Position numbers and translations under genes: made by a program
Shown here: positions 30,047 to 58,295 of the stretch, piece by piece
Position numbering within the stretch: the stretch's first letter is position 1
Layout of the letters: each line of letters starts with the position of its first letter
Notes under the pieces: model-generated
The model's database searches: none
What the model saw: the letters and a program-made list of their open reading frames with translations, nothing else
Told to the model about the DNA's origin: nothing
Assembly (NCBI GenBank): GCA_016935525.1
Contig: JAFGQU010000002.1
Location: forward strand, 34,560-98,559
DNA: 64,000 nucleotides
Direction of reading: 5' to 3'
Origin: Candidatus Omnitrophota bacterium
GTDB lineage: Bacteria; Omnitrophota; Gorgyraeia; Duberdicusellales; 4484-171

Positions 30047-31045
30047 TTATAGATATTGCGCTGCGTCGAAAATCGCGCTTAGTTTTCCTGAATAGATAAG
30101 ATTTAACTCTAACGTGGAGGTACACGCACAATAATCACACCCGGCAATCGGCATACTTTCTATGATCTCTTTTAAAGATTTGGATGACTGAAAATACTCC
30201 ACGGGTAAATTCGTTTTCTTTGACATCATCCCCGAACAACAATAGAAACTGCCCACCGGGTCGATACGGAAAAACATTCTACCGGCACAACAAGCCATCG
30301 GTCTATAATGAGGATAGTCACTTAAATACCCGAGACCTGCCTGAGAATTCACTATAGTCCGCCCATACCCTTTCTTTTTCATCTGGATAAGCTGAGAGAT
30401 CGTATCCTTGAAATTCTCCGGCGAAGGAATATATTCTTTTATATCCTTATCTCCGCTGAGCAACATATTTACCGGCTGGAATTTCACTGTAATCCCTAAA
30501 CTATAGGCAAGTTCTACCAGATACCCCGCATACTCTAGATTTTTTCTGGTCAAAGTCGTATTCAAAGAAACACGAATACCATATTTTCGGGCTACCTTTA
30601 CCGCTCCGATAACCTCATCATAATGCCCTTCTCTATTGCGCAGTATGTCATTGATCGAAGCCGGCCCATCGAGACTTATTTTTACAAGGTCTACTTTCTT
30701 CAGCCAATCTAATCTTTCCGCGAATAATATGCCGTTAGTAAGAATCCCCAATGTGATATTTTTATTTTTACAATGCTCAATAATCACACCTAAATCTTCA
30801 CGTAAGAGCGGTTCTCCGCCGCCGAAATGGATATGCCTTAGGCCTAAAGCTGCCAGATCGTCAATAATATAAAGGATATCTTCAGTCGATAACTGCGCGG
30901 ACCAATGATGCATCACATCGCAATAGAGACAAGAACAATTACATTGATGGGTGATATCCCACCCTATGAATAAAGGGACTCTTTTTTTCAACAATTTTAC
31001 CCGCAGCAGGTTTTGTACATAAGGAAATATTTTTTTTATTCTCAT
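30047..31045 (-). CDS. radical SAM protein with C-terminal Cys-rich SPASM/twitch-like domain
   Basis: WDITHQCNCSCLYCDV (CX3CX2C), FGGGEPLLRED; C-terminal CCAGRMF...YCCSG...AGCDYCACTS. Start reset to MRIKKIFP at 31045 forming an ATGA stop/start overlap with the upstream gene. Confidence 0.8.
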   Translation of the reverse strand: MRIKKIFPYVQNLLRVKLLKKRVPLFIGWDITHQCNCSCLYCDVMHHWSAQLSTEDILYIIDDLAALGLRHIHFGGGEPLLREDLGVIIEHCKNKNITLGILTNGILFAERLDWLKKVDLVKISLDGPASINDILRNREGHYDEVIGAVKVARKYGIRVSLNTTLTRKNLEYAGYLVELAYSLGITVKFQPVNMLLSGDKDIKEYIPSPENFKDTISQLIQMKKKGYGRTIVNSQAGLGYLSDYPHYRPMACCAGRMFFRIDPVGSFYCCSGMMSKKTNLPVEYFQSSKSLKEIIESMPIAGCDYCACTSTLELNLIYSGKLSAIFDAAQYL

Positions 31046-32037
31046 ACTACTTTCCTTAATACCATCCTCCCGGTATTCCAAATCGCTTCCGGATGCAATC
31101 CGTATAAGAGGCTCATTTCCACCCGCTGCGCACACCAGCAGGAAGAACAATGGCCAGCAACAAGTCGTTGAAATGCTTCAGCCACCCCATTATCGACAAT
31201 ATTTATCCTGGTTTTCTGGTTCCGGTTGCACACACATACATCTCCCGAACTCTGCACGCGACAGGAAAAATAGTCCGCCCTACAGCGCAAGGGATAAGGT
31301 CCCGGCCAATGGGCAAAATGGCGTAAACATGCCGATGAATTGGTAATATATATATTTTTTTTCTTAAGAATAAGCAATTTTTTTATCGCCGCGCTATATT
31401 CTTCAAAAGAAGGAAGTAAAGGATTGTCTTGATGAGCACAATACAGTAAAGATGTAGTAAGCGGCTGAAAGGTTATTGTTGCTTGATACGACTGTGCTGT
31501 CGTTAACAAAAAATCGATTTGATCCAAGTTTAAGCGGGTCAAGGTCGCCGCGAAATTCAAAGGGATATTATGCCGCCGGGCACATTCAGCGGCTTCTAAA
31601 ACCTTATCGTAAGACCCTTCCTGCCGGATCGTATCATGAACCGACCGATTTCCCTCTATACTAAGACTTAACAGATCTACTTTTTGCAAAGAATCGATCT
31701 TTTTTTTCACATCCCATCCGTTCGAACTCACCGAAACATATATGCCTTTCTTTTTACAGTACGCGATGATCTTTCCAAGATCATCGCGCAGGAGCGGTTC
31801 GCCGCCGGTAAAAGAAATAAACCGGGTCCCTAATTGAAAGAAATCTACGATTTTTTCGATAACAACATCGGTAGATAACTCTTTCTGAGGGGTTTCCCAG
31901 ACTCCACAATATACACAACGCAGATTACAACGGGAGGTCAGGGCCCAACTTACCAAAAGGGGGATCTTTTTCCCGCAAAACTTGACTTTACTCAAAGTGA
32001 TCAGCAATTTCAATATGTCATTGTATTTCATTTTCAC
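31042..32037 (-). CDS. radical SAM/SPASM-like protein
   Basis: LTSRCNLRCVYCGVW, FTGGEPLLRDD; C-terminal CRADYFSCRV...CVCN...GHCSSCWCAQ. Confidence 0.8.
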   Translation of the reverse strand: MKMKYNDILKLLITLSKVKFCGKKIPLLVSWALTSRCNLRCVYCGVWETPQKELSTDVVIEKIVDFFQLGTRFISFTGGEPLLRDDLGKIIAYCKKKGIYVSVSSNGWDVKKKIDSLQKVDLLSLSIEGNRSVHDTIRQEGSYDKVLEAAECARRHNIPLNFAATLTRLNLDQIDFLLTTAQSYQATITFQPLTTSLLYCAHQDNPLLPSFEEYSAAIKKLLILKKKNIYITNSSACLRHFAHWPGPYPLRCRADYFSCRVQSSGDVCVCNRNQKTRINIVDNGVAEAFQRLVAGHCSSCWCAQRVEMSLLYGLHPEAIWNTGRMVLRKVV

Positions 32038-32113
32038 TATAATTCACCATTGACCGGATGTGGTATATATTATTCCGAAAATCAAACCGGGATCTGCATA
32101 TTGGATCTTTGAA

Positions 32114-34006
32114 TTAGATCTTTATGTTATACCTCTCCGCCCAAAGATAAAAACAAAGTAACCCGAAAATCTTCCAACTATGGTCTTCCTGCCGGAGACG
32201 ATGCTGACGCAACAAAATTTCAATGTACTTACGCTGAAATACCTGCCCGGTTAATTTAGATGAAAAGAAAACTTCTTCTGCTGTCTTGCCCCAATCATTA
32301 CGGATCCATAAAGATAACGGGGTAGTAAACCCCCGCTTAGGCCTGTGGATAATCTTATGAGGTATTTTCCCCGCCATTATTCTCTTAAAAATATATTTCG
32401 TAGTAAACCGATGCAATTTCATCTCTAAGGGCAGATGTGCGCAAAAGGCGACAAGCCGATGGTCCAAAAAAGGCACACGACTCATTAATGAGAACGCCGA
32501 AGTCATGCTGTCTAACCGTTTGAGCATTGAAAGCAGCAGGATTTTTTGATCGGCATAAAGGACTTTCTCGAGGATAGAGGCATCTTCTCTTTTCCTATAA
32601 TAAAAGTCATAGAGAGAAAAAGGATCATAATTTCCCATTCTCTCGGTTATCGCGGGACAGCATAACTGTTCTCTTTCAAAACCAGAAAACACTTCCCGCC
32701 AGAAAAAATGGGCGCGACCTAAAGGATACTGCGTTCCTTGTAAGAATCTCTTTAATTTAAACCTCATTCCCCAAGGATTATCCCCAAGAAGACACCGAAT
32801 ATCCAAAATCTTATGTACATATTGTAAGCCGGCTGGGGATAAAAAACGGCTCAACATGCACAGCAATTTATCCGCTACATAGGTATCATATCCGGCAAGA
32901 ATCTCATCAGCGCCGGTTCCGACAAAAAGGATCTTAACCGATTGGCTTGCGAATTGGGATATAAAATAGGTGGGGATAATACTGGGGTCTGCGATCAGAT
33001 CGCTATTATGTTTCATGAGCGTTTGAAGCGTATGGATATCTACATCTGCCGAAGAGATAACGATTTCATGGTGATCGGTTTTTAATTGACGGGAAAACCA
33101 TTGAGCATACCTTCGGTTATCATCAAATTTTTTCTCTCTAAAGCCTAAAGAAAAGGTGGAAAGCGGCCTTGAATCTTGATCAAGGAAATAGCTTATCGCC
33201 GAAGAATCGATCCCTCCGCTTAATAAAACCCCCTGTTGGGGCACTCCAATAGTCCTTTTATGGACAGCATCTTCTAAAAGGCATTCAAATCGTTCTTCGT
33301 ACTGTTTCTTTTGGGTGTACTCTTTTTTTTCGTTTTCCAGAATATCCCAGTATTGCACTTTACGCATCTCTTCTGGAGAAAACGACACATATGTCCCCGG
33401 TTCAAGCTGATGGATACCTTTAAATAACGTCAACGGGCCCGGCACATAATTAAGAGAAAGATATTGGGCGAATGCCGTATAATCTAACTCTCGCGGTATC
33501 TGTTGGTTGCATAACAATGCGCTGATTTCTGAAGCGAAAAAGAGTGATTGATGACGACGATAATAATAAAGAGGTTTCACTCCCAAATGGTCACGCGCCA
33601 TGTATAACACATTTTTAAATTTATCGAAAAGGCAAAAAGAAAATATACCGTTAAAACGGCCCACACATCCTTCCCCCCATTCTTTATAACTGTTTAATAT
33701 CACCTCTGTATCTGAATCCGATTCGAATGCATATCCTTTACGTTGTAATATTTCTCTGATTTCTCGATAATTATATAGTTCTCCGTTATATACCAGGATG
33801 GTCTTTTCGGCCCGATCACACATTGGCTGTTGGCCTCCGGAAGAACCGATAGTAACCAGCCGAGAATGTACGGCAGCGAACGAATTGGTAGAGAAAATAC
33901 CAATTTCATCTGTCCCCCGATGGGCTATGGCCTGAGACATTTCTCGCACCTGAAATGTTGTGGCTGGAGATCGCTCAAAATCGATATACCCGGCAAATCC
34001 ACACAT
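32114..34006 (-). CDS. asnB: asparagine synthetase B-like glutamine amidotransferase
   Basis: Ntn start MCGFAGYIDFE, PP-loop LLSGGIDSSAISYFL, 630 aa. Confidence 0.8.
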   Translation of the reverse strand: MCGFAGYIDFERSPATTFQVREMSQAIAHRGTDEIGIFSTNSFAAVHSRLVTIGSSGGQQPMCDRAEKTILVYNGELYNYREIREILQRKGYAFESDSDTEVILNSYKEWGEGCVGRFNGIFSFCLFDKFKNVLYMARDHLGVKPLYYYRRHQSLFFASEISALLCNQQIPRELDYTAFAQYLSLNYVPGPLTLFKGIHQLEPGTYVSFSPEEMRKVQYWDILENEKKEYTQKKQYEERFECLLEDAVHKRTIGVPQQGVLLSGGIDSSAISYFLDQDSRPLSTFSLGFREKKFDDNRRYAQWFSRQLKTDHHEIVISSADVDIHTLQTLMKHNSDLIADPSIIPTYFISQFASQSVKILFVGTGADEILAGYDTYVADKLLCMLSRFLSPAGLQYVHKILDIRCLLGDNPWGMRFKLKRFLQGTQYPLGRAHFFWREVFSGFEREQLCCPAITERMGNYDPFSLYDFYYRKREDASILEKVLYADQKILLLSMLKRLDSMTSAFSLMSRVPFLDHRLVAFCAHLPLEMKLHRFTTKYIFKRIMAGKIPHKIIHRPKRGFTTPLSLWIRNDWGKTAEEVFFSSKLTGQVFQRKYIEILLRQHRLRQEDHSWKIFGLLCFYLWAERYNIKI

Positions 34007-34277
34007 AATTATTTTTTAATGTGCATATGAGAAATCACTGAGGAAGGGCTTTCCCGGTAAAAAAAGGCAATATAACGGCATTCAAGAAAAAAACCTTGAC
34101 GGTTAATAAAAAAATCCACACATCCTCCCGTTTCAACAAAAACCATATGCCATCATAGTATCAATGAGATGAAATTGGAATGTGCCTATTGATTGATTTA
34201 AACCGGTATGAGCAGAAACCAACAAAATTCGTGAGGTACTATTTTCCTTATATCATCCGGTATATGTTCCTAAAAGA

Positions 34278-36005
34278 TTAATTGTCGTTGGGATTATTAT
34301 GGATTTTCTTCTCTTTAATTTCTCTCAAGAGGTCGGCGTAACCTTTATCAATTCCCTCTAATGTGTTAATAACGCCTGGCAAGCGATTCAGATATTCATC
34401 AGAAGTGCTGTGAGCGTATATGATTCCCAATAAAAAATACCCATCAGGGTGAGTGGGGGCGATCTTAATCGCTTCTTGATAGGATTTTACCGCAGGTTCG
34501 GTCTCTCCCACACGCGCATATATATTCCCTAATCCGATATGCCCAGCGATGTTTGAATGGTCTAACGCGACCGCTTTCTGGAAATACTCTTTGGCTTTCG
34601 TAAAATCTTCCCGGCCGAAATAGAATTCACCGATCCGGGTGTACACGCCGGCATCTTCATATCCTAATGACGCTGCTTTTTCAAAATGTTCAAGGGCAGA
34701 TTCTAACTGGCCTTCGGTCAAATAGACATGGCCCAAATTCATATGGGTAGCCGCATTCTCTTGATCGAACTGAATGCTTTTTTGATAGTATTTTTTTGCT
34801 TCGGGAAGGTCGTTTTTCTGCTGATACAGATCGCCCAGACTCCGATAGAGTCCCGCGTTATTTTGATCCTGCGTGAGCCCCTGACGATAATATTCTTCGC
34901 ATTTCTCGATATTTCCGGTCCGCTTATAAAGATTCCCTAAAATACTATACAGATTAGGATCTTTGGGATTGAGCGGTAACGCTTTTTCAAAATATCCAAT
35001 AGCCTTCTCCCATGCTTCTTTTTGGACATAGATATCCCCCAGCTCAAAATAAGCGGTATAATTATCCCCGGCTACGTCGAGCGCCCTCTGGAAAGAAGCT
35101 ATAGCCTCTTGGAAATTGCCTTTGCGCTTGTAGAGCTCCCCCAAACGGGTAGGGATGTCCTCCCGGGATACATTCAACTCCTGCGCTTTTTTAAAATATT
35201 GTATTGCTGTTTCTGTATTGTGTAACTTATCGTATATGTCTCCCAGAACGAAAAGGATCTCCTCACTATCTCCCTGAATCTTATAAGCTTTATGAAAAAA
35301 ATCGGCGGCTTTTTCAAATTCACCGCTCTGTTTATATAAATTGCCGATATGAAAATAAATATCCGCATTCTCCCGGTCAAGTGAAAGTAAATGTTCATAA
35401 TAGACAATTGCATTTTTGATATCACCTTTTTGCAGATAAAAATCTCCTAAAATATAATAGGTACGCGGATAGGTTGGGTCTATTTGAAGAGATTTTTCGT
35501 AAAAGTATATCGCCCGGTCAAGATCGTTCCGATCCCGGTACTCATCTCCTACTTCCTGGAACAGATTTCTTACTTCATCATATCTACCGGAATCATGAGG
35601 ATCATCTAATAAACTGATCCCTTGAGAGTAGTACTCGAGAGCTTTCTCTTTTTCCTTAAGCTCATAATACATATCGGCAATATGTATGTAAAGATGCGGG
35701 TTATTCTGTTCGAGTTGCAGTATCTTTCGCCCGTAATCAAGAGCTTTGCGATATTCCTTTTGAGCCCGGTATGCTTCCATCAAAGAATAATACGCCGGAA
35801 TATAATCATCCTCTAGCTTAAGCGCCTCATTATAATATTTTATCGCTCCCGGAAAATCGCCCTGCTTAAACGCGGCTTCTCCCAACACGACCAGCTCTCG
35901 ATGTGTGTTCTGAACAACCACATACGGTTTTTTCTCCGGCTCGCACCCCGCGATAATAATGAATAACACAAAGGCTAACGTTATTCTCGTTACAAACGGG
36001 ACCAT
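34278..36005 (-). CDS. TPR-repeat lipoprotein
   Basis: Signal peptide plus lipobox LFIIIAGC; about 15 tandem 34-aa TPR units (AxxYYxxAL...P pattern throughout). Confidence 0.7.
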   Translation of the reverse strand: MVPFVTRITLAFVLFIIIAGCEPEKKPYVVVQNTHRELVVLGEAAFKQGDFPGAIKYYNEALKLEDDYIPAYYSLMEAYRAQKEYRKALDYGRKILQLEQNNPHLYIHIADMYYELKEKEKALEYYSQGISLLDDPHDSGRYDEVRNLFQEVGDEYRDRNDLDRAIYFYEKSLQIDPTYPRTYYILGDFYLQKGDIKNAIVYYEHLLSLDRENADIYFHIGNLYKQSGEFEKAADFFHKAYKIQGDSEEILFVLGDIYDKLHNTETAIQYFKKAQELNVSREDIPTRLGELYKRKGNFQEAIASFQRALDVAGDNYTAYFELGDIYVQKEAWEKAIGYFEKALPLNPKDPNLYSILGNLYKRTGNIEKCEEYYRQGLTQDQNNAGLYRSLGDLYQQKNDLPEAKKYYQKSIQFDQENAATHMNLGHVYLTEGQLESALEHFEKAASLGYEDAGVYTRIGEFYFGREDFTKAKEYFQKAVALDHSNIAGHIGLGNIYARVGETEPAVKSYQEAIKIAPTHPDGYFLLGIIYAHSTSDEYLNRLPGVINTLEGIDKGYADLLREIKEKKIHNNPNDN

Positions 36006-36069
36006 TGATCTCTTCTTTTTTGGCCTATAGTTTTATCTTCTTTTCTATGTTCGGTCATTGCGCTCATTT

Positions 36070-37419
36070 TTATCGGCTGCTATTTTTCTGAAGGATACGT
36101 ACCTGACCCAAATACCTCTCTAAATCGGCCGGCGACAATTCACCGGTGCCGGCCACAGCCCTGATATTCCCATTATACTGCGACCAATCCCTTGTCTTCA
36201 ACAGATTGTTTTGTTTAAGATCATTATAAAGCTCGGTCCCCGGAAAAGGAGTAGCTAAGGAAAATTGAACTGAATCCGGATCAACCTGCCTGAGAAAACA
36301 GAGAGATTCCTGTATGGTATGGGGGGTTTCCCCGGGGAGCCCCAGACAAAATGTAAGATGCACCCGAATACCTATTTTTTTTGTTTCTTTTACGATCTTC
36401 CGGCATCGTTCTATATCCATATTTTTCTTACAGCGCCTTAATATCTCAATATTGGCAGATTCAATGCCGTATTTTATTGCATACATCCCCGCCTCCCGCA
36501 TCTCACGTAGGAGCTCCTGATCCATAAGATCGGCCCGGGCCATCGCGGCCCAGGGAATATGTATCCCGCGTTTCTTTATCTCGTTACAAATTTCCACTAC
36601 ATACGGCTTATTCACGTTAAACGTGTCGTCATCAAAATATACCGCCTTAAAATCATAGGTTCGGATAAGCCACTCCAACTCATCGATAACCAATCGCGGA
36701 TCCCTGCGGCGATGGACATGTTCCTGATACATGACCTGGGGCCAAAGACAAAAAGTACAGCGAAACGGGCACCCGCGGCTCGCAAGCATTTGCACGTGAG
36801 GTTCGGGCAGCCCGCAAAAACCATCATTATAATTATAAAGAGGGACATCTTCTCTTTCCGGCCAGGGTAATCTATCCAGATCTTTTAAAGTCGGCCCCGG
36901 CCGGTTGATCCGTATTTCTCGGCCCTGGCGATACGCGACCCCTTCGGTATATTGAATATCTCTTTTTTGTTCTAACGCGTCGGCTAACCCGGCAGCCGCA
37001 AGTTCGTACTCCCCCATAAGAACATAATCAATAACCGGGTGGGTCGTGAGAATATCCCGGGCATATACCGTAGCGTGCGGGCCGACACACACACAAATCG
37101 TGTCAAGGCGCTCTTTAATCCTTAACGCAATACCGATATCATGTTCAAAACTGGGAGTCGACGTCTCGGCAATAATCATCTGAGGCTTATACCTCACAAC
37201 CCTTTCCAGAAAAGACTCCTCATCAAGGCTTTCGGCGATCGCATCGATCATTTTTACCTGATATCCGTTCCGTTTCAAATAAGAAGCCGTATAAGCGAGA
37301 AAAAAAGGAAAAGGGAGGTATGTTGCCGGGCCTTGCGCGGTGAACGGCCAGCGGGATCCCGCTCTTACTCCGCATTGACCCTCAACACACCAGGGGAAAT
37401 TTGCTATAAGGATCCTCAT
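36070..37419 (-). CDS. B12-binding domain radical SAM protein (class B)
   Basis: MRILIANFPW... B12-like N-terminus; ASRGCPFRCTFCLWP CX3CX2C. Confidence 0.8.
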   Translation of the reverse strand: MRILIANFPWCVEGQCGVRAGSRWPFTAQGPATYLPFPFFLAYTASYLKRNGYQVKMIDAIAESLDEESFLERVVRYKPQMIIAETSTPSFEHDIGIALRIKERLDTICVCVGPHATVYARDILTTHPVIDYVLMGEYELAAAGLADALEQKRDIQYTEGVAYRQGREIRINRPGPTLKDLDRLPWPEREDVPLYNYNDGFCGLPEPHVQMLASRGCPFRCTFCLWPQVMYQEHVHRRRDPRLVIDELEWLIRTYDFKAVYFDDDTFNVNKPYVVEICNEIKKRGIHIPWAAMARADLMDQELLREMREAGMYAIKYGIESANIEILRRCKKNMDIERCRKIVKETKKIGIRVHLTFCLGLPGETPHTIQESLCFLRQVDPDSVQFSLATPFPGTELYNDLKQNNLLKTRDWSQYNGNIRAVAGTGELSPADLERYLGQVRILQKNSSR

Positions 37420-37889
37420 CTTTTCAGATCAAGTTCTTTCTCGATATTTTCCAAAAACTTCGTAAGTTCATAAAAATTCTGATTCATATCTTTTACGTCG
37501 CAGGCCAATCTTTCAATAATCTGCTGTTTCTCCTGTGATGTGCATTCTATTGTATTCAAATGTCGATGTATCCGCTGAACGTATTCCTCGTAAGGATCAA
37601 ATTTACGGCTTACATCTTCAACCGCATCACGGATTCTTTCCAGAACGAGCTGATTTCTACGGATATCCTCTAAGATCGATAGGTTGTTATTCACCAAAAA
37701 GAAAAGAAATTCTCCTATATTTACGAATAATTTTAAGACCAACGCGCTTATAACACTGCCTCCGATACAAAGTACTGGAATCCACCACGATCTATAAAAA
37801 TACCAGTAACTCATAGAACCTACTATTCCAATACCTAATAATATCCACGCACAGACAGTAACCGCTCTTCCCGTAGGGGTTTTTTTCAT
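37416..37889 (-). CDS. small membrane protein with cytoplasmic coiled-coil tail
   Basis: Two N-terminal TM helices, then a charged helical region (EDIRRNQLVLERIRDAVEDVSRKF...). Confidence 0.4.
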   Translation of the reverse strand: MKKTPTGRAVTVCAWILLGIGIVGSMSYWYFYRSWWIPVLCIGGSVISALVLKLFVNIGEFLFFLVNNNLSILEDIRRNQLVLERIRDAVEDVSRKFDPYEEYVQRIHRHLNTIECTSQEKQQIIERLACDVKDMNQNFYELTKFLENIEKELDLKR

Positions 37890-37890: not shown

Positions 37891-39216
37891 TCATACCTCC
37901 TTTTTGGTCTTCACGACTTGGTTCTGAGATGCTTTTATCAGATTAACCATTTCCGGCAGATAGCTTTCGAGTCGGGACAACCAATCCTGCCAAGAAATGA
38001 ACATACTCCCAAAAAGACCCTTTTCAATCCGGTCATGGTCTTTTTTAAAAAAATCACTCCATTCTTTTTGAAGCACATAGAGCGATAACAATTTATCTTC
38101 AATAAGCAGGATGTCTCCTCCTTTACCGGTAAAAATGCTTTCGGTGATATGGGCTATCAGTACTTTCAAAAAATCGGAATCCGAGAATGTATCTTTCAGT
38201 ACATCCCCGATAAGCAGTAAAAATACAAACACATTTTGAAGCACCCGGCGCCGGGGCACCACAAGGGTCCTGAGCGACTTTCTTGTATCATCAAAATGAT
38301 AAAAGAAAGTAAGATCTAACAAAATCAGGTATAGCACCGGCAAAGAAAGGGTATGATCGATACGTAAAAAGACCTGTTTATCATATCGTATAAAAAGGTA
38401 ATCTTTGAGAGAAAGGATAAAAGGAAGAATCAAGTCGATATAAAGCAGATCTATTCTTTTGTTACGAAAATCTTCTTGTAGGAACCGGGCTCCCAGGCCA
38501 AGGTTTTCCTCCATCTTCACCGAAGGGTCTTTCTCATAGAAACCCTGTTCTTTATGAAAATCGTAATTCCAGCTCCAGAAAGAATGAAAGAGAGAAGATA
38601 TGGTATCTTTTTTTAAATGAAAAACACGGGCCGCCGGCTCGTACATCAATAGATGGTCTTTCTGTTTTAATCTCCGGGATATATCTACATCTTCATAATT
38701 ATTGCGGTAGCGCTCGTCATAGAAACCTACCGAATATAATGCTTTTTTTCTAAACACATTGTTGGAACCGAACAGAAACGGGACCGAATCATCTTTTTGT
38801 TCTCCCCACTCCTGTTTCATATGGACTGCCCGCCACCGGTCCACGGGATCATGAGCATACGATTCCAGCAACCGTCCGCCGACACCGGCTATTTTCTCAG
38901 AAGAAAAATTCTCCATGAGCCGGCTCAGCCAATCACGCTCCGGTATGCAGTCGGCATCTAACGACGCGATATATTCTCCCCGAAGATTCTGTAAAGCGGT
39001 ATTGCGGGAGGCAACCAGGCCTTTATTAGAAGGATGTTGAATAAGGGTCACCGGGAATTTTCTCACGATATCGGCAGTGCGGTCGGTAGAACCGTCATCA
39101 ACCACTACTATTTCCTCTATGGGATGGTCCTGGACCATGATTGCCTGGAGGCAGCCGGCAATATATTCTTCAGCATTGAAACAGGGAATATACACGGATA
39201 CTTTCATATGAGCCAT
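37891..39216 (-). CDS. family 2 glycosyltransferase with ~200-aa hydrophobic C-terminal extension
   Basis: VSVYIPCFNAEEYIAGCLQAIMVQDHPIEEIVVVDDGSTDRT GT2 N-terminus and a DAD (DxD) motif in SLDADCIPE. The C-terminal third has several hydrophobic helices. Confidence 0.7.
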   Translation of the reverse strand: MAHMKVSVYIPCFNAEEYIAGCLQAIMVQDHPIEEIVVVDDGSTDRTADIVRKFPVTLIQHPSNKGLVASRNTALQNLRGEYIASLDADCIPERDWLSRLMENFSSEKIAGVGGRLLESYAHDPVDRWRAVHMKQEWGEQKDDSVPFLFGSNNVFRKKALYSVGFYDERYRNNYEDVDISRRLKQKDHLLMYEPAARVFHLKKDTISSLFHSFWSWNYDFHKEQGFYEKDPSVKMEENLGLGARFLQEDFRNKRIDLLYIDLILPFILSLKDYLFIRYDKQVFLRIDHTLSLPVLYLILLDLTFFYHFDDTRKSLRTLVVPRRRVLQNVFVFLLLIGDVLKDTFSDSDFLKVLIAHITESIFTGKGGDILLIEDKLLSLYVLQKEWSDFFKKDHDRIEKGLFGSMFISWQDWLSRLESYLPEMVNLIKASQNQVVKTKKEV

Positions 39217-48724: not shown

Positions 48725-49726
48725 TTAAAAATAATGACAAAATTGTAAACAGGGATTTTTACATTTTTGGGCTTTCCTTCTCATCTGTCCGGCTTTAGAA
48801 GAATACCAGGCCTGACGTATACCCATCCGATACACATCGCCGCAACTATCCTGGCAAAAAAACACACAAGAACTCATCCGTCCATTACGTTTTTCTCCGG
48901 CAGTAATGATCATGCTTTTATACCCGGCAGCGCATTTCTTGTGAATGCTTTTAAGCGAATAGTAATCCTCAAGGAGGCCGGCGTCGGGATTCCAGTCAAT
49001 ACGAAGATTTTGATACTCATGAGTTAATATCATTTTAAAGTCGTCTTTAAGTCGCATCACGTCATCTTCCTGGGGCCACAAATCGCTTGCCTGAACGCCT
49101 TTAGGAGAATTCTGAGGATCGGTATTGCGCACCAGATACGGTATAAAATTCATCACGTTTACCCCTAACCTGTCGGCAGTGTTCGTCATTTCATACAACT
49201 GCCCGCAGTTGTTACGATAGATCACTGTGCCTACTCCGATCGATTTTACCGGATTAAGCTTCCGCAATAAGACGATGTTCTGCAGCAGACGATCATAGGC
49301 CCCCGCCCCTCTTAGTCGATCATGAGCATCTTTGTTCCCGTCAAAAGAGAAATGCACGTGATCGATAGAGGAAGCAGCGATTCTTTCAATCATCTCCCGG
49401 TTATAATACCCGTTCGTCGTCACCGAAACATCCATATTTCGCTTTTTGATATAGTCGGATATCTCGAATATCTCTTTTACCAAAAACGGTTCTCCGCCGC
49501 TTAATACCACCTGAGAGATCTTCATCTGGCAAGCTTGATCGATAATATCAAATATCTTCGCTACATCCACCGCGCCGCGGGGAGCATCTACCGGCTGTTT
49601 GATGCTGCAGATGCCACACTGTAGATTACATTGGTTGGTAAGCGAAAGAATCATCATCTGCGGCGGCAAAAGCGGCCTCCCCAGATACCGTGACAACCCG
49701 TACACCATCTTTTGAAAAAAAGTCAT
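48725..49726 (-). CDS. radical SAM/SPASM-like protein
   Basis: RYLGRPLLPPQMMILSLTNQCNLQCGICSIK, LSGGEPFLVKE; C-terminal CKNPCLQFCHYF. Confidence 0.8.
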   Translation of the reverse strand: MTFFQKMVYGLSRYLGRPLLPPQMMILSLTNQCNLQCGICSIKQPVDAPRGAVDVAKIFDIIDQACQMKISQVVLSGGEPFLVKEIFEISDYIKKRNMDVSVTTNGYYNREMIERIAASSIDHVHFSFDGNKDAHDRLRGAGAYDRLLQNIVLLRKLNPVKSIGVGTVIYRNNCGQLYEMTNTADRLGVNVMNFIPYLVRNTDPQNSPKGVQASDLWPQEDDVMRLKDDFKMILTHEYQNLRIDWNPDAGLLEDYYSLKSIHKKCAAGYKSMIITAGEKRNGRMSSCVFFCQDSCGDVYRMGIRQAWYSSKAGQMRRKAQKCKNPCLQFCHYF

Positions 49727-50889: not shown

Positions 50890-51857
50890 ATTACGTCATA
50901 TATTTCCCGATAGGAATGTTTACTCAATAACACATGCATGCAATTCGAGCATATTTCTCGATAACGCGAGCGCATCTCGACATATTTTTGATTATTCCAG
51001 ATATCCTCAAATGAAGATTGAGTGATATTCCCCATCAGGTCGTTATTCATACAACATCCTAACACGTCGCCGTTGGGGAAAAGATAAAGATTCTTCCACA
51101 ATACCGGGCAATGCCAATCGGCCACTTTTTGTAACGTATTCACGACAGTAAGTGCGGGATGCATCTTTCGGAAGCGTTCCAAAGCGTCTAAAAAATCGAC
51201 GAACTCTCCGTAAGAAGGAAGGTATTCGTCTCTTAATTCTTCTTTGAGAAAAAGGACTTTTGTGTAAATCAGGTTTTTGCAGTGATACTTTGCCCCGACT
51301 TCAAACAGTCGCAATGAATCATCCAGGTTTTTTTTAGTCACTACCGCCGAAAGGTTCAGGTTGAATCCGTAGACATTCTTATATTCCCTCAATCTCTCCA
51401 GAGTCGGAACGATCTTTGAAAAAGGGTACCCCCTGGTCAACTCATTGGTCTTGGGCCCGTCTACGGATATGGTAATGCTCCGGGTACACGGCAACAGTTT
51501 AAATAATATCTTTTCATCGATATCTATCCCGTTGGTGGTAAGAAAAAATTCTATACCCAGAGGAGCCAGTATTTCAATCAATTCTCCCAGATAGGGATAA
51601 AGAAAAGGCTCTCCGGTCACGCTGAATTCCACATACTTTGCCCGGGTAAACAGAAAAATATTATTTTTTATCAATTCCAACGGCATGGTCCCATACTGAA
51701 AACTTTTTTTATTAAGGCCGTGTATTTCACAATACACGCAACGGGCGTTACAATTGTTATTGGTCTGAAGATTGATGATCGTGGGGTAAGACCGCAGGAC
51801 TGTTTTATGTTCACAATATTCCTGCTGATTGAGCTGGGCATTCACTCTACGATCCAT
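50886..51857 (-). CDS. radical SAM/SPASM-like protein
   Basis: TNNNCNARCVYCEI, VTGEPFLYPY; C-terminal WHCPVLWKNLYLFPNGDVLGCCMN...CSNCMHV. Confidence 0.75.
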   Translation of the reverse strand: MDRRVNAQLNQQEYCEHKTVLRSYPTIINLQTNNNCNARCVYCEIHGLNKKSFQYGTMPLELIKNNIFLFTRAKYVEFSVTGEPFLYPYLGELIEILAPLGIEFFLTTNGIDIDEKILFKLLPCTRSITISVDGPKTNELTRGYPFSKIVPTLERLREYKNVYGFNLNLSAVVTKKNLDDSLRLFEVGAKYHCKNLIYTKVLFLKEELRDEYLPSYGEFVDFLDALERFRKMHPALTVVNTLQKVADWHCPVLWKNLYLFPNGDVLGCCMNNDLMGNITQSSFEDIWNNQKYVEMRSRYREICSNCMHVLLSKHSYREIYDVI

Positions 51858-52818
51858 AATTTTCCTGATTGATATGGAGCCCCTGCAAACAAGGTTCCTT
51901 GCAGGTCTTTATTCGTTCCAGTTCGGCCTGATATTCTTCGGAATAGAAAATCTCCTTAAAATCATATGCGTACAGCGGCATCGGGACCTCTTTCCCGCAC
52001 AGATACGGTAATCCTTCACAGGTGATGTTCAGCGATTCGTATCCGGTAAGACATCGCCCGTTTTTTTCTAACACATTGGCGAAATAGTGCATATACGACC
52101 TGATTAAAGGTGCCGGACGGGTACTTATATATTCATGAGCTACCAGATAATCGATGATCTCTTTTAACTTTGCTTTCTCTTTTTCGGTAAGCCGGAATTT
52201 TTCCCGCACATAACATAATTCATTGTTGGGGATTACCGGCTGGACATCAAATCGCACCCCTTTAAATCTCTCAAACTCTTTAAGAAAATCCACAAAATGA
52301 GAAAAATTCTCCGGCATCAATATTGAACTTACCGTCAGGCTCGCGATCTTCTCGGCAAGAAAATATTCTTTATACACCCGCTCAAAATTGTGTACCGTCT
52401 TCTTAAACGTCCCGCCCCCTCTTATAAAATCATGGTCATATTGAAGGCCATCGATAGAAAAGATTATTCCTATTTTTTTCAATTCGTGTTCGTCAAATTG
52501 ATCCAAAAAAACTCCATCAAATAAAGTCCCGTTAGAAATGACATTGACGGTATTTATGTCGCATGCGCAGGTAAATTTCATAATGTGTCCAAGGTCGTCT
52601 CTTAAAAGCGGCTCTCCGCCGCCGAAGGTAATCCGCTGAATAGCACAGTTTCTTTCGAGATTTCCGATAATCTTGATCCACTCCTGGGAAGAGAGTTCCG
52701 ATTCCGCGCCATATTTCCCTTTACCGGTGGTACACATCAGGCATTGCAGGTTACAACGGTTGGTGATCGCGATATAAAATTCGCATATATTAAAATGTTT
52801 ATCTCTCATCTGGCTCAT
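51847..52818 (-). CDS. radical SAM/SPASM-like protein
   Basis: ITNRCNLQCLMCTT, FGGGEPLLRDD; C-terminal CLTGYESLNITCEGLPYLCGK...CKEPCLQG. Confidence 0.75.
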   Translation of the reverse strand: MSQMRDKHFNICEFYIAITNRCNLQCLMCTTGKGKYGAESELSSQEWIKIIGNLERNCAIQRITFGGGEPLLRDDLGHIMKFTCACDINTVNVISNGTLFDGVFLDQFDEHELKKIGIIFSIDGLQYDHDFIRGGGTFKKTVHNFERVYKEYFLAEKIASLTVSSILMPENFSHFVDFLKEFERFKGVRFDVQPVIPNNELCYVREKFRLTEKEKAKLKEIIDYLVAHEYISTRPAPLIRSYMHYFANVLEKNGRCLTGYESLNITCEGLPYLCGKEVPMPLYAYDFKEIFYSEEYQAELERIKTCKEPCLQGLHINQENYGS

Positions 52819-53863: not shown

Positions 53864-53865
53864 TT

Positions 53866-56298
53866 TTAAATATTTTTATACATATAACAATCCTGAAAAC
53901 AGCGCACCTTACACTTTTTCGCTTTATCACGAAACGTACGGGCCTCCGGAGAATACCATATCTGTTTTAACGGACGGCTACTGATATTGCCTAACGTACT
54001 GCTGCATAGCCACACATCTCCATTCGCAGTGATGGATAATCGGTTATATCCGGCAAAACATTTCCAATTCACATACTTTTTAGAAAGCAGATAGTTGAGG
54101 TACGCCTGAGGATAAAAAAAGACGCAATTATGAAAACGGCAATAGCCTTCGATTTTCCCGATCTGATCAAATAATATTCCGGGATGTTCGATGTCGGCAA
54201 GCGGACTGTTGATGCCGGCGATCACGTTAGTATTATCATCGACTACGTTTAAAAGCTGGAATTTAGAATAAGGATACAACTGGTGCAGATATCTCACCAG
54301 TTGGTAAAGATCCTGATAATTATATCTCGTGATCAGGATATTAAAACATACTTCAAAACGGACACCTTTGTGCTGCACAAAGTCATATAGTTTTCTTAAA
54401 TTCTCGGTGACGCGGGCGAACGCCCCCGCTCCTCTTATCTCATCATGGGCCGAGGGAAACCCGTCCAGAGAGATATTCAACAGATCGAAAGAGACTGTTT
54501 CGGCAAGAAACCGGTCAAGAAGCATACCGTTAGAACTGAGGTGGAATGAACGACGGTCGTTTTTTACGGTCTCAGCGATCCGGGAAAAATCGGGATGCAG
54601 TAACGGCTCTCCTCCGGTAAGCTGAATGATCTTGTGCGGGTTTTTGAACTCATCGATTTGCTCCAGCAGATCGGTAAACATCGAAAAATCAAGATGCCCC
54701 ACGCATTTATTGGCTTGGCACATCGGACAACGGAGATTACAATGGTCAGTTATTTCGATCATAAAATACTGAGGCTCAACAAAAGGATGCCCGATAAGAC
54801 GGGAAAAAATAAATTTCATTTTTGCCGGATCGATCCTCTGTTTCACTTTTTTCCAACGGTTATAGTAAGATAAGCTCCTCAGAAAAATATTTTTTCCGTT
54901 TCTCTTTGGCGGAGAAAAAAAAGAAGCGAATTTGGCCAAAGAATTCAATAAGCCATAGTGTTTTTTACCGGCATTCTCAATATAGGTCTCAAGCAGGCGC
55001 AGATCCGATTCAAGATAATCTTTTTCCCTCGCGCTCAATCCTCCGATCCGTAGATTCTGCTCAAGAGACCTGATGAAATCATCGATATGCTCTTCGATCA
55101 AATGGTATCCGGCTACAAGGATCGGCCGCAACGGCAACTGGGGATACCGATGGATATATTCTTCCAGAAAATGCAGTTCCCGCATGAGTAAAAAAAAGTT
55201 ATTGTGTTCCATGAGCCGCTGATGGATCTCACTTAATGTATCTGCCGAAGGACGTATAGAACAGAATTGCACGCAATTTGCCTTGCAATTTTTTATGGTC
55301 TCCCGGAAAGACCGGGCCGCGAGGCCAGACCAAACTTCAAAGAGCGAATCTTTTTCGGCTAAACCGAAATGCTGGTCTTTTTCTTTATTGGGCCCATTAC
55401 ACACAAAACAGATCTTCTCTCCTACCGCCAGAGCCCGGCAAAAACCGGCATAACATTTATCAACATAAATCTCGCTGGAAAAATATGTATAGATCTTTTC
55501 GTGAGGGACTTCGATATGGACCCAGGTATGGAAGTTACGCTCTTTTATCTTATCAAGCGTATCTTTAAGCAAAGGCAACCGCTCAGGCGGGATCCAAAAC
55601 CTATCTTCACGACGCCCTTTTAAATCGCTGTTACACACATAGGGTTGAATATGGATACCACAGACATTATACTTTTCACAGAAATCGATCATCTCATACA
55701 TGGTATCCAGGGTCTGGTCCATCAACACCGAACAGGTATCGACCAGAGGATATTTGGTGTTACGGCGTTGTTTTTCAACGTTGATATATTCGAGAGCGTC
55801 AATAATTTTTTCAAACACCCCTGCTCCTCGCAAAGAATCATGAATCTCCTTCTTCGGAGAATCAATGGATATCCCTAATGTCTCCAGCCCCGAATCAAAT
55901 AATCTATTGATTGTTTTATGATCCAGCAGAGTACCGTTGGTATTCACATGCGTACGCACATGAGGGTAGTAGTCGCGGACATATTTTATGAGACTAAAAA
56001 TGTCCGGCCGCAGCAGCGCTTCGCCTCCGGTGAAATACACTTCTTTAAGATTCCCTAAACGATACGCATCGTCAATGAGTTTTTTCACATAAAAAGTATC
56101 TATCTCTTTTTCTTTCACTCGCCAGACACCGCACATCGCACACTGCAAATTACATCTTGTGGTGAGGATCAACTGCAGCATATGCGGGCCGATCAGGGGA
56201 ATATTGAGGGCGAGAGAAAAATTATAGAGATAATCTTCTTTTATCGAATCGAAAAATACAAGTTGCTCGTTGATATTATCCAGACAATAATGAAACAT
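53866..56298 (-). CDS. tandem double radical SAM/SPASM-like protein (two complete rSAM modules in one 810-aa polypeptide)
   Basis: Module 1 has LTTRCNLQCAMCGVW (aa 46-60), FTGGEALLRPD and CKANCVQFCSI. A ~140-aa helical linker follows. Module 2 has ITDHCNLRCPMCQAN (aa 516-530), LTGGEPLLHPD and CKVRCFQDCYM. There is no in-frame stop between them. Confidence 0.8.
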   Translation of the reverse strand: MFHYCLDNINEQLVFFDSIKEDYLYNFSLALNIPLIGPHMLQLILTTRCNLQCAMCGVWRVKEKEIDTFYVKKLIDDAYRLGNLKEVYFTGGEALLRPDIFSLIKYVRDYYPHVRTHVNTNGTLLDHKTINRLFDSGLETLGISIDSPKKEIHDSLRGAGVFEKIIDALEYINVEKQRRNTKYPLVDTCSVLMDQTLDTMYEMIDFCEKYNVCGIHIQPYVCNSDLKGRREDRFWIPPERLPLLKDTLDKIKERNFHTWVHIEVPHEKIYTYFSSEIYVDKCYAGFCRALAVGEKICFVCNGPNKEKDQHFGLAEKDSLFEVWSGLAARSFRETIKNCKANCVQFCSIRPSADTLSEIHQRLMEHNNFFLLMRELHFLEEYIHRYPQLPLRPILVAGYHLIEEHIDDFIRSLEQNLRIGGLSAREKDYLESDLRLLETYIENAGKKHYGLLNSLAKFASFFSPPKRNGKNIFLRSLSYYNRWKKVKQRIDPAKMKFIFSRLIGHPFVEPQYFMIEITDHCNLRCPMCQANKCVGHLDFSMFTDLLEQIDEFKNPHKIIQLTGGEPLLHPDFSRIAETVKNDRRSFHLSSNGMLLDRFLAETVSFDLLNISLDGFPSAHDEIRGAGAFARVTENLRKLYDFVQHKGVRFEVCFNILITRYNYQDLYQLVRYLHQLYPYSKFQLLNVVDDNTNVIAGINSPLADIEHPGILFDQIGKIEGYCRFHNCVFFYPQAYLNYLLSKKYVNWKCFAGYNRLSITANGDVWLCSSTLGNISSRPLKQIWYSPEARTFRDKAKKCKVRCFQDCYMYKNI

Positions 56299-56348
56299 AT
56301 TTGTATATCTAAAAAATTTTCTTCACCCTCGGGCTCTTTAGGCTTACG

Positions 56349-58295
56349 TTACACGATACATTCTACCTTTATTTCTCCCGAGGTTTTCCGAGGATCACAA
56401 AAACAAGGTAAAAGACAAGGCCAGGGACACCGGGCAGCCTGGTTGTAAGCATGTATCCTGGCTGCCCCGTCAAGTATATCTCTTAACGACTGCTTTTTTA
56501 TATCGCCATAAAAAGAGAAACAAGTCGCACTTTTACCTTCATTCGCAATAAGCATCGTCTTTTGAGCCGACTTACAGCGGACATCGGTACCGCGCAGCTG
56601 ACGACGATAATATTTTTTCATTAAAAGCAGGTTCTCTTCCGAATTGCAAATGAAATCTTTATAGCGCTTTTTCGTTTGGATCAGCAGATCAACGGTTTTA
56701 TCCAGTAACGGCAGTTGATCCGGAGTGACCCAGAACGGAGACTGCCTCCGGTCAGCCATTCTCAAATTATTCGGCAGAAGCGCTTGAAATTGCAACGAAT
56801 TTACCTTTAATTCATAGAGAAAAGGGATTAACTGCGGCAATTCTTTTAGATTTGCTCCGCAGATAATACTGATTACATTAAACCGGACCTGGGCGCGGCG
56901 GCTTTTAAGCGCTGCCAGCAAACGCAGACTTTCTACCGTATGTTCCCAGGCGCAAGGCGAGTTCCGCATATAATTATGGATTCGGGGAGTAATCGAGTCG
57001 AGAGAGATTATTAAAGATATCGTCTCGTCGGTCAGATAGGGTTCTAAACGAGAAAACATTTCTTTTACGGCCAGACCATTACTTAATACGCCTATCTTTT
57101 TCAGGCCGAGGTGTCGGGCATGATCGAATATTTCCGGAATATCTTTCCTCAAAAGAGGTTCTCCACCGGAAAGGGTAATTTCTTTAATCCCGAGCCGGCG
57201 CGCTTCACGTAAGACTTTTTTTACATACCTCAACTCCAAGTCAGACTCCTCTTTGGCGGTTTTCCAGATGTCACATATCCGACAGGAAAGGTTACAACGA
57301 TGAGTGATGTCCAATATCAAGAGTTGCGGCGGCGGCAGCAGTTGTGGTGTAATTGTCTTATTTTTCTTTACTCTCAGGTACTCGGCAATATTACCCAGTA
57401 TATATACCGCCTTATGGATGCTCAGGCAGATGTACATCGACAGTTTTTTATTGATATTTTTGATCTGTTCTTTACAAATAAGTTTTCTTGCCAATATATA
57501 CACAAAACGGGGAATTTTAAGGATATTGAACGCGGTAGCCCGCCAAAAAGAAAATGTTCCCGGATCAAGCTCTTTCAATAAAGGATGGTCACGGTGGAGA
57601 TATTGGACCAAAAAGTTTCCGCGACCATAGATATAGGCTTGTCGAATAAAACTAAAAAAAGTCTCATCCCGGTCATGGACCACAATAATATCCTGATCCC
57701 AGAGAAACCTCTTACCATTTTTAAAAAGACGCCAGAAAAATTCCAGGTCTTCCCCTCCGGGAAAAGGAAAATGTTCATTAAACCGGGCCTGCTCAAATAC
57801 CTCTTTTTTAAAAGAGACATTGCAGGTGGGGAAGAATATCGCTTGCATTCCTTGACCTATTTTCACTTCAATACTGCACGTACTTAAAAACTGCCCCACC
57901 ATTACATAGCTTCTCTGCTGCGCGGGCAGAGTATCGCCTCCGATGGCCGCAATACCGGGATTATTTCCGTGGGCGGTGACCATTTTTCCTGCCCAATCCC
58001 GCCGGCAGATACAATCATCATCAACAAACCCGATAAGTCGTCCCCGGGCTTGATGTATGCCGAGATTTCTTGCTGCCGCCGGGCCCCGGTGATGTTGCGA
58101 GAAATAGCGCACCTGCGTAAATTCTTTAGCAAAATCCGAAATCAGTTGTTCGACCCGACAGTCGGAGGCATCATCAACAACGATAATCTCAAAATGTTCC
58201 TGAGGATAGTCCTGACCAAGCAAAGCATTAATACAATTTTTGAGCTTTTCTATCCGTTTATATGTGGGGACAATGATCGAAATGATGATATTCAT
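56349..58295 (-). CDS. family 2 glycosyltransferase fused to a C-terminal radical SAM/SPASM-like domain
   Basis: N-terminal IISIIVPTYKRIEKLKNCINALLGQDYPQEHFEIIVVDDASD and FVDDDC (GT2 DxD). A hydrophobic linker follows. The C-terminus has ITHRCNLSCRICDIW, LSGGEPLLRKD and RCPWPCLLPCFC. Start set at MNIIIS (58295), which has AAGGAG 6 nt upstream. Confidence 0.8.
   Translation of the reverse strand: MNIIISIIVPTYKRIEKLKNCINALLGQDYPQEHFEIIVVDDASDCRVEQLISDFAKEFTQVRYFSQHHRGPAAARNLGIHQARGRLIGFVDDDCICRRDWAGKMVTAHGNNPGIAAIGGDTLPAQQRSYVMVGQFLSTCSIEVKIGQGMQAIFFPTCNVSFKKEVFEQARFNEHFPFPGGEDLEFFWRLFKNGKRFLWDQDIIVVHDRDETFFSFIRQAYIYGRGNFLVQYLHRDHPLLKELDPGTFSFWRATAFNILKIPRFVYILARKLICKEQIKNINKKLSMYICLSIHKAVYILGNIAEYLRVKKNKTITPQLLPPPQLLILDITHRCNLSCRICDIWKTAKEESDLELRYVKKVLREARRLGIKEITLSGGEPLLRKDIPEIFDHARHLGLKKIGVLSNGLAVKEMFSRLEPYLTDETISLIISLDSITPRIHNYMRNSPCAWEHTVESLRLLAALKSRRAQVRFNVISIICGANLKELPQLIPFLYELKVNSLQFQALLPNNLRMADRRQSPFWVTPDQLPLLDKTVDLLIQTKKRYKDFICNSEENLLLMKKYYRRQLRGTDVRCKSAQKTMLIANEGKSATCFSFYGDIKKQSLRDILDGAARIHAYNQAARCPWPCLLPCFCDPRKTSGEIKVECIV

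Follow-up and report, generated by a model that had tools for sequence, protein, structure and literature searches.

Twitch-like radical SAM domains with a distinctive cysteine tail in a Wzm/Wzt-associated gene array of Candidatus Omnitrophota

SPASM proteins such as anSME (PF13186/TIGR04085) are recognized among radical S-adenosylmethionine (SAM) enzymes by a seven-cysteine motif, CX9-15GX4C-gap-CX2CX5CX3C-gap-C, in which the CX2CX5CX3C stretch and the distal cysteine serve auxiliary cluster II. The founding "twitch" enzyme, BtrN (2-deoxy-scyllo-inosamine dehydrogenase, PDB 4M7S/4M7T), reportedly holds one auxiliary [4Fe-4S] cluster bound by two hairpin cysteines and a downstream CX2C, and in both BtrN and anSME the hairpin cysteines and a downstream cysteine motif are said to bind auxiliary cluster I. 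Peptide maturation is the commonest role of SPASM/twitch radical SAM enzymes. BtrN, encoded in an aminoglycoside cluster, acts on a carbohydrate-like substrate, and BlsE (cytosylglucuronate decarboxylase, PDB 7VOB) acts on a sugar nucleoside. Here we describe an array of 16 radical SAM domains in a 64,000-nucleotide stretch of a Candidatus Omnitrophota genome (contig JAFGQU010000002.1, hereafter the window), about half of which carry an N-terminal block and a C-terminal cysteine tail of their own. The proteins are a variant of the known twitch/SPASM kind of radical SAM enzyme.

The 16 domains lie on 15 open reading frames (ORFs) between positions 30047 and 58316 (ORF calls and Pfam), and the minus strand carries every gene from 27.8 to 63.4 kb, with intergenic spacing of -74 to +271 nt. 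A sequence-only reading of this DNA had placed 16 such sequences within 30047-58295, and both the count and the limits were correct: the last paralog has its stop end at 30047, and a fusion between a family 2 glycosyltransferase (GT2) and a radical SAM domain has its ATG at 58295. Proteins are named below by their lower coordinate. Each domain scores 62-156 bits against PF04055 (threshold 29.5) and each has both CX3CX2C and G/T/I-GE-P/A; the 16 domains belong to the MoaA/PqqE/SPASM-twitch branch of radical SAM.

The same reading had proposed that most paralogs share four motif blocks, namely an N-terminal YP...P block, a GGEP loop, a mid-domain W.C motif, and a PCLQ.C tail, and that these are family-specific, the tail being distinctive enough to define a subfamily. 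When the 16 domains were aligned with MAFFT, all four blocks fell in the same columns, and the motifs are therefore positionally equivalent. The literal patterns, on the other hand, were too strict: the N-terminal block fits none of the 16 domains, GGEP[FL]L[HR][KE]D fits six, CK.PCLQ.C[YH] two, and W.C.......I.P.G.V..C only one, in the 40485 protein (WKCNPFVFINIGPDGEVRSC). Relaxed forms fare better, with [YRHI]P[LFY]..P in 7/16, GGEP[FL]L..[DE] in 11/16, the hairpin C-x8-22-G-x4-C in 14/16, and the tail C-x3-C-[LVF]-Q-x-C in 7/16, to which can be added CPWPCLLPC of the GT2 fusion and CKEPCLQG, where the last cysteine is lost. All seven tail examples listed earlier were found, and an eighth, CKVRCFQDC, was added from the second half of the 810-aa tandem protein 53866. 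Columns invariant in 16/16 comprise CX3CX2C, GE, NG, S.D, R, both hairpin cysteines, and the middle tail cysteine, and the first and last tail cysteines are kept in 11/16 and 13/16, respectively.

Pairwise identity among the paralog domains is only 15-37%, the closest pair being the 48725 and 46576 proteins (37%), which argues for old lineages whose conserved residues are under selection. Recent tandem duplication is rejected on the same identities, and the paralogs are, judged by their divergence, old and distinct lineages. Even the two halves of the 53866 protein share just 25% identity (E = 2e-20), and the two distal paralogs, 30047 and 31042, are 34% identical to each other.

To separate specific motifs from generic ones, a control set of 112 radical SAM ORFs was used, taken from 78 loci of an 80-locus genome scan whose other two loci are true relatives. 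The scan was driven by TGGEP[FL]LRxD, which matched at least 600 stretches across many phyla, including Desulfobacterota, Archaea, Chloroflexota, and Cyanobacteria, so the GGEP loop is generic. Most controls likewise contain CN[LIVM]xCxxC (91/112) and the C-x8-22-G-x4-C hairpin (89/112), and the generic elements as a class, CN(L)xCxxC, GGEP(F/L)L..D, (T/S)NG, and the C...G....C hairpin, recur in most of these unrelated controls. By contrast, neither the N-terminal block [YF]P...P nor the tail C-x3-C-[LMIVF]-Q-x-C occurs in any of the 112 control ORFs, and the tail pattern is also absent from approximately 835,000 residues of non-radical-SAM ORFs in the window and 83 loci, so its presence here is no accident. 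Past the hairpin, controls mostly follow CX2CX5CX2-3C-gap-C, whereas family loci have CX3CX3C; canonical CX2CX5CX3C was found in 0/16 window domains and in 0/27 at ortholog loci. Subfamily specificity, claimed for all four blocks, consequently holds for the N-terminal block and the tail and fails for CN..C, GGEP, and the hairpin, and "most paralogs" is an apt description of the generic motifs, the specific pair being confined to about half of the domains. At the level of sequence, the N-terminal block and the C-x3-C-x3-C tail mark a distinct, uncharacterized radical SAM subfamily.

The N-terminal block and the tail C-x3-C-(L/V/F)-Q-x-C occur together in exactly seven domains (40485, 44203, 45324, 46576, 48725, and both halves of 53866), which are defined here as class A. 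Class B consists of the remaining seven domains with CX2C-type tails, leaving aside the 51847 protein and the GT2 fusion, whose tail is a sister form (CPWPCLLPCFCD).

Homologs of the 46576 protein and of the fusion are numerous. The 46576 protein is 100% identical to a protein from an NCBI "Candidatus Omnitrophica" metagenome-assembled genome (MAG) and has more than 600 homologs, the best 120 being 48-61% identical; C-x3-C-[LMI]-Q-x-C is kept in 120/120 of these, mostly with L in place of the P of PCLQ. For the GT2 fusion, 214 homolog clusters were found, and the 120 listed are 45-57% identical over almost the full length, nearly all of the named ones belonging to Omnitrophica/Omnitrophota; C-x-W-P-C-L-L-P-C-F-C-D is retained in 117/118 of the fusion homologs. 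When a profile built from the C-terminal half of each of the nine tail-bearing domains was searched against 1.84 billion representative proteins, it gave 2,510 matches at E <= 1e-3, 379 at <= 1e-10, and 25 at <= 1e-30. Among the best 150 of these, the strict tail is present in 65, C-x3-C-[LMIVF]-Q alone in 5, and some other C-x3-C-x3-C in 63, while the remaining 17 show neither pattern, several of them seeming to be fragments or to bear long C-terminal extensions. With 133 of the best 150 profile matches carrying one form or another, the expectation that the tail would define a subfamily and retrieve its relatives was borne out. Since the 46576 orthologs mostly have L for P and the fusion orthologs have LLP, the robust core is C-x3-C-x3-C, the P and Q of the proposed PCLQ.C tail not being universal; residues between the cysteines vary by orthogroup, but the cysteine spacing is fixed. 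The transferable signature is C-x3-C-x3-C, often with P before the second cysteine, and every orthogroup has an extended version of its own.

Orthologs recur in the same gene order at related loci (L001, L003, and L004), with 40-62% identity by blastp, for the 39265, 40485, 45324, 46576, and 56349 proteins, and equally for the B12 enzyme 36070, the GT2 37891, Wzt, Wzm, and the oxidase. For example, 40485 has orthologs at loci L001, L003, L004, and L005 (47-62% identity), 39265 at L001, L003, and L004 (43-54%), and 45324 at the same three loci (45-52%), where it stands beside the 46576 ortholog. Non-core paralogs reach 23-35% at best against the related loci and look like variable accessories. 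A few loci with this cluster are labeled as ultra-small lineages of another kind or as unrelated ones, L005 as a Nanoarchaeota MAG, L001/L002 as a "Patescibacteria group" MAG, and L004 as a "Planctomycetia" MAG; these labels could reflect errors of binning or labeling, or lateral transfer.

With regard to fold, a full-length sequence search of the PDB aligned the radical SAM core alone. A 30-sequence profile of the C-terminal region, however, had a sole significant match in the PDB, the twitch domain of BtrN (E = 2.7e-5), with the two hairpin cysteines aligned to BtrN chain positions 169 and 187; in marginal matches, the first tail cysteine aligned with a C-terminal cysteine of SkfB and of SuiB. 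These alignments bear out the earlier suggestion that the tail sits at the position of twitch/SPASM auxiliary-cluster cysteines. The AlphaFold2 (AF2) model of the 46576 protein (pLDDT 95.3) runs from a helix (residues 2-19) through the YP...P loop and the barrel to three strands (276-282, 285-290, and 293-297), helices, and the cysteine tail. Foldseek placed BlsE (7vob) first for this model (E = 1.4e-14, TM 0.70/0.76, 347 aligned columns), followed by SkfB, SuiB, DesII, CteB, PqqE, and anSME. A Cys-flanked hairpin, a helix, a short cysteine motif, and likeness to a solved twitch domain are thus all found when the BtrN match, the AF2 model, and the Foldseek results are taken together.

Each of these relatives also differs from the Omnitrophota domains. 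BtrN has the same order of hairpin, helix, and cysteine motif, but at approximately 250 aa it is smaller, lacks the N-terminal YP...P helix block, and has its downstream CX2C some 9 residues past the aligned helix, where C-x3-C-x3-C directly follows the helix here. BlsE shares only 18% sequence identity with the 46576 protein, and the NCBIfam model TIGR04466 scores only approximately 38-42 bits against a cut-off of 400. anSME and other SPASM proteins resemble these domains in their radical SAM core and in the CX9-15GX4C hairpin (Foldseek TM approximately 0.6), the latter fitting 14/16 domains as a regular expression and 16/16 in its two cysteine columns, but none of the 16 domains has their CX2CX5CX3C, and the final distal cysteine is usually missing too, the controls from the 78 loci being canonical. 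It is because of this absence that the domains are described as twitch-like rather than canonical SPASM, and the earlier SPASM label, which suits the CX2CX5CX3C-dominated controls, is too strong for them. PF13186 reaches its gathering threshold of 21.5 in five of the 16 (39265, 44203, 49729, 50886, and the C-terminal half of 53866); 40485, 45324, and 47655 fall just below, and the other domains have no match. The most frequent best NCBIfam match, TIGR04317 ("tungsten cofactor oxidoreductase radical SAM maturase"), reaches 62-130 bits per domain where the cut-off is 380. Its alignments extend through the C-terminal domain, as in the 44203 protein, which has the highest value and whose residues 38-362 match model positions 6-318, but there are no tungsten-enzyme neighbors here.

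Cysteine counts run from 5 to 8 per domain. Outside the CX3CX2C triad, five positions are shared; minimal domains have these five, six are conserved in the GT2-fusion orthogroup, and seven, spaced C-x9-C-x10-C-x3-C ... C-x3-C-x3-C, in 94 orthologs of the 46576 protein. The class-A tail probably holds an extra iron-sulfur (Fe-S) cluster.

The surroundings of the array point to glycan assembly and export. On its upstream side are a Wzt-like ATPase, an ABC-2 permease, and a flavin amine-oxidase-like protein, and within it, besides GT2 and B12-dependent radical SAM genes, are genes for an AsnB-like amidotransferase, a tetratricopeptide repeat (TPR) protein, and a SAM methyltransferase. Permease, Wzt-type ATPase with C-terminal extension, and glycosyltransferases accordingly stand in one operon-like array, as in a Wzm/Wzt assembly cluster. 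The best Foldseek match of the ATPase model (AF2 pLDDT 85) is Aquifex aeolicus WzmWzt (E = 1e-22; PDB 8DKU/7K2T/6M96), with which the nucleotide-binding domain is 41-42% identical and the match takes in the whole of Wzt and, with it, part of the beta-rich C-terminal region; as in that system, the ABC-2 permease adjoins the ATPase. A typical Wzt has one carbohydrate-binding domain, whereas the extension here is a beta-rich region of approximately 650 aa with three repeats of approximately 220 aa (pairwise E = 1e-9 to 1e-15). The overall length of approximately 905 aa is conserved across Omnitrophota. Translation likely starts at M58 (61223), since the long ORF 58494-61394 would overlap the permease gene by 164 nt.

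This architecture is repeated at L001/L002, L003, L004, L005, L084, and one more locus, where a WecA-like transferase, an amine-oxidase-like protein, an ABC-2 permease, and an ABC ATPase of approximately 905 aa accompany a GT2-radical SAM fusion, several radical SAM/SPASM-like genes, B12 radical SAMs, and GT2s. Some related loci additionally have Wzy_C (WaaL-like) proteins, sugar epimerase/dehydratases, GDSL-TPR proteins, and further GT1 and GT2 genes. The WecA-like and WaaL-like genes were found at related loci only, and in the window they would fall beyond 63.4 kb. GT2-radical SAM fusions, a conserved hallmark, are present in the window and at L001 (8094-10001), L003 (51-1940), L005, and L084 (10001-12892 and 20045-22687), the last encoding one protein with GT2 and two radical SAM domains and a second with GT2 and one.

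Taken together, the reading we favor, and consider fairly likely, is that these radical SAM enzymes are twitch-like, carry an auxiliary cluster, and tailor a glycan exported by an ABC transporter, the class-A tail supplying auxiliary-cluster ligands. The motifs, how specific they are, the class of fold, and the conservation of the genomic context are shown by the data, and Fe-S ligation by the tail, the number of auxiliary clusters, the glycan substrate, and the chemistry are inferred. Each domain unites the CX3CX2C cluster, the GGE motif for SAM binding, and a partial TIM barrel with a C-terminal beta-hairpin domain. There, the cysteine pair flanking the hairpin and the tail cysteines would ligate at least one auxiliary Fe-S cluster, and in class A a tail of the form C-x2-(P)-C-(L/M/I/V)-(Q/L)-x-C would stand in place of the usual CX2C or CX2CX5CX3C, with a predicted N-terminal helix ending in (Y)P...P ahead of the first barrel strand. 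Each enzyme would abstract a hydrogen atom from a sugar within a glycan that is nascent or linked to undecaprenyl, and might perform one distinct tailoring step, be it oxidation, epimerization, dehydration, or C-C or C-methyl chemistry; the auxiliary cluster could accept electrons or anchor the substrate, as it does in BtrN and anSME, and Wzm/Wzt would export the finished polymer. The core set would have been inherited across Omnitrophota with the GT2-radical SAM fusion, the GT2s, the B12 radical SAMs, and the exporter. It is possible, and offered more tentatively, that an Omnitrophota surface glycan or lipoglycan is tailored by a whole battery of such enzymes, class A being a new glycan-modifying clade with a non-canonical auxiliary site.

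Several points weigh against this interpretation. The specific tail is missing from 7/16 domains, such that "one family signature" does not extend to the whole array; every NCBIfam model stays below its cut-off for the paralogs, and no member has been characterized; the glycan substrate is deduced from neighbors and fusions only; and a single auxiliary cluster is not certain for all members because the conserved non-triad cysteines number five, six, or seven. Taking up this last point, one could regard the domains as true two-cluster SPASM enzymes with a non-canonical second ligand set, which would make "twitch" wrong for at least some orthogroups. The seven and six cysteines of the 46576 and fusion orthogroups, and the five domains that reach the Pfam SPASM gathering score, would fit such a scheme, but only three non-triad cysteines are invariant in 16/16 and the shared pattern has five positions, CX2CX5CX3C is absent throughout and a downstream eighth cysteine usually so, the best sequence match is the one-cluster BtrN twitch, and the Pfam SPASM model also matches twitch-type hairpins. 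A two-cluster arrangement is accordingly rather unlikely. It is more doubtful by far that the shared motifs are simply residues inherited from a common ancestor, with no special functional meaning apart from the generic radical SAM fold. It is true that four of the six motif elements are generic, but the tail cysteines and N-terminal block persist despite 15-37% paralog identity, both are kept across hundreds of orthologs at 45-60% identity, and the cysteine spacing stays fixed while the intervening residues differ by orthogroup.

The glycan substrate must likewise be set against two others. Were the enzymes maturases of a ribosomally made peptide with post-translational modifications (RiPP) encoded in or near the cluster, one could account for the many sub-threshold NCBIfam matches to WgkB, StsB, PqqE, the mycofactocin maturase (MftC), and ScmE/F, for SkfB, SuiB, and CteB among the structural neighbors, and for the sub-threshold resemblance of the AsnB-like protein to lasso-peptide cyclases. 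Nevertheless, no paralog has a Pfam match to PqqD or a RiPP recognition element, just 15-60 residues lie ahead of CX3CX2C, the largest gap in the cluster (33950-34330) has no convincing precursor ORF, and the cluster has no peptidase or peptide-type ABC exporter, its transporter being of the Wzm/Wzt type. Moreover, radical SAM modules are fused to GT2 in more than 200 homolog clusters, and the best scores of the AsnB-like protein are to an exopolysaccharide-type amidotransferase and to asparagine synthase, whose cut-off it exceeds; a peptide substrate is very unlikely. Hardly more probable is a lipid substrate, be it the polyprenyl carrier or a lipid of the membrane-spanning or ether kind, for which Tes, Mss, Grs, and Hbs of tetraether lipid synthesis offer a precedent. 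Weak matches to the tetraether lipid synthase Tes (NF045702) and structural likeness to GDGT-MAS (7tol) point that way, the class-A N-terminal helix could act as a membrane anchor, and the B12 radical SAM 36070 resembles HpnJ and a "ladderane" lipid radical SAM; HpnJ itself, however, acts on a sugar moiety. The cluster contains no lipid-synthesis genes, and the GT2 fusions, the WecA-like and WaaL-like genes, and Wzm/Wzt indicate a glycan. Homologs of Hbs and Mss are present in Omnitrophota (10.1101/2023.10.20.563219), which counts for a lipid role, but the set of 7-8 C-terminal cysteines and the COG4001 extension of Hbs-type enzymes (10.1101/2023.10.20.563219) are absent here. Tailoring of an exported glycan by twitch-like enzymes thus continues to be the preferred explanation.

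In all, the observation made in the sequence-only reading is partly confirmed and its interpretation partly supported. The C-x3-C-x3-C that follows the hairpin, the lack of CX2CX5CX3C, and the N-terminal (Y)P...P provide a sequence key that separates an uncharacterized clade, approximately 2,500 representatives at 50% identity, from the large SPASM/twitch pool. A variant ligand set would also bear on how auxiliary clusters tune radical SAM reactivity. On its own the motif is of moderate interest, which would become high if the cluster really encodes enzymes that tailor a surface glycan by radical chemistry throughout a phylum; the cluster recurs in homologs named almost wholly as Omnitrophota, an uncultivated phylum. 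The window has 16 twitch-like and 3 B12-dependent radical SAM domains, some fused to glycosyltransferases, and we know of no O-antigen cluster with 19 radical SAM domains. To our knowledge, known glycan pathways rarely use radical SAM chemistry, and an assembly line of approximately 19 domains, if true, would therefore imply sugar modifications not yet seen and represent a polysaccharide counterpart to RiPP-style radical tailoring, for which the GT2-radical SAM fusions offer a direct entry point to in vitro study. Searches of the literature turned up neither the cluster nor the motif, and a preprint on giant proteins of Omnitrophota mentions only radical SAM co-occurring with sugar-metabolism domains.

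Table 1. Features of the array and its surroundings in the 64-kb window
Feature	Position	Strand	Evidence and motifs
EtfB + EtfA with N-terminal 2x[4Fe-4S] ferredoxin domain	22176-24181	-	
GT2, distal cluster end	27810-28565	-	Pfam
B12-binding radical SAM, distal cluster end	28531-30033	-	Pfam
Class-B paralog, PTO1314-like	30047-31150	-	tail CDYCAC
Class-B paralog, 331 aa, PTO1314-like	31042-32037	-	tail CSSCWC; best NCBIfam TIGR03961, 109 bits (cut-off 306)
AsnB-like amidotransferase	32114-34006	-	
B12 radical SAM	36070-37419	-	Pfam
Small ORF, 157 aa	37416-37889	-	hydrophobic N-terminal segment
GT2	37891-39216	-	Pfam
Class-B paralog, 407 aa, core member	39265-40488	-	tail CRGCMMSC (CX2CX3C); SPASM 48 bits
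Class-A paralog, 394 aa, core member	40485-41669	-	YPYIEP; CAKPCLQTC 40635-40661; Pfam
Small ORF, 114 aa	42411-42755	-	hydrophobic N-terminal segment
B12 radical SAM	42766-44163	-	Pfam
Class-A paralog, 380 aa	44203-45345	-	YPLVAP; CATPCLQWC 44275-44301; Radical_SAM + SPASM 28 bits
Class-A paralog, 420 aa, core member	45324-46586	-	YPLIPP; CRRHCLQDC 45564-45590; Pfam
Class-A radical SAM/twitch-like, 356 aa	46576-47646	-	Pfam Radical_SAM 93 bits; YPFSKP 47569-47586; CX3CX2C 47515-47538; GGEP 47398-47409; CKNPCLQSC 46657-46683
Class-B paralog, 344 aa	47655-48689	-	tail CKDVCHFLLNC (CX3CX5C); Pfam
Class-A paralog, 333 aa	48725-49726	-	RPLLPP 49661-49678; CKNPCLQFC 48737-48763; Pfam
Class-B paralog, 386 aa	49729-50889	-	tail CHECC; SPASM 25.9 bits
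Class-B paralog, 323 aa	50886-51857	-	tail CSNC (CX2C); SPASM 51.4 bits
Paralog, 323 aa, no N-terminal block	51847-52818	-	partial tail CKEPCLQG 51877-51903, last Cys missing
Class-B paralog, 354 aa	52799-53863	-	tail CYESCC
Tandem fusion, two class-A modules, 810 aa	53866-56298	-	two Radical_SAM stretches; SPASM 51.6 bits; tails CKANCVQFC 55261-55287 and CKVRCFQDC 53887-53913; N-terminal blocks IPLIGP and HPFVEP
GT2 + radical SAM/twitch-like fusion	56349-58316, likely start 58295	-	Glycos_transf_2 100 bits; Radical_SAM 79 bits; tail CPWPCLLPC(FCD) 56403-56429
Wzt-type O-antigen/teichoic-acid exporter ATPase	58494-61223	-	NCBIfam TagH/Wzt
ABC-2 permease, Wzm-like	61231-62013	-	Pfam ABC2_membrane; NCBIfam Wzm/RfbD and KpsM sub-threshold

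Some features of individual paralogs deserve mention. The two complete modules of the 53866 protein are joined by a helical linker of approximately 120 aa, and metagenome relatives have up to three modules, or GT2 and two modules (P0191 and P0385). In 40485-type proteins, among them matches such as P0131, P0140, P0158, and P0173, the tail is followed by a helical stretch in which an L..LE.YE..L-like motif recurs, LNEYEEKLK being the form in the window protein, and this stretch may be a docking helix. The distal paralogs 30047 and 31042 have in common their CX2CXC tails and a sub-threshold likeness to TIGR03961 (PTO1314). The true start of the 30047 gene is probably the ATG at 31045 (M36), since the 109-nt overlap with the upstream ORF then vanishes.

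Housekeeping genes, among them those for PEPCK, SAICAR synthetase, EtfAB, SMC, DnaG, RpoD, and GatAB, occupy the region below 27 kb, and with such genes flanking the cluster a phage or plasmid origin is not suggested. The EtfAB pair lies 4 kb downstream of the cluster, and it is conceivable that it could supply low-potential electrons to the radical SAM enzymes. Finally, the two small ORFs inside the array match no Pfam family above threshold, and at L004 the position of the one at 37416 is taken by a counterpart with 28% identity.

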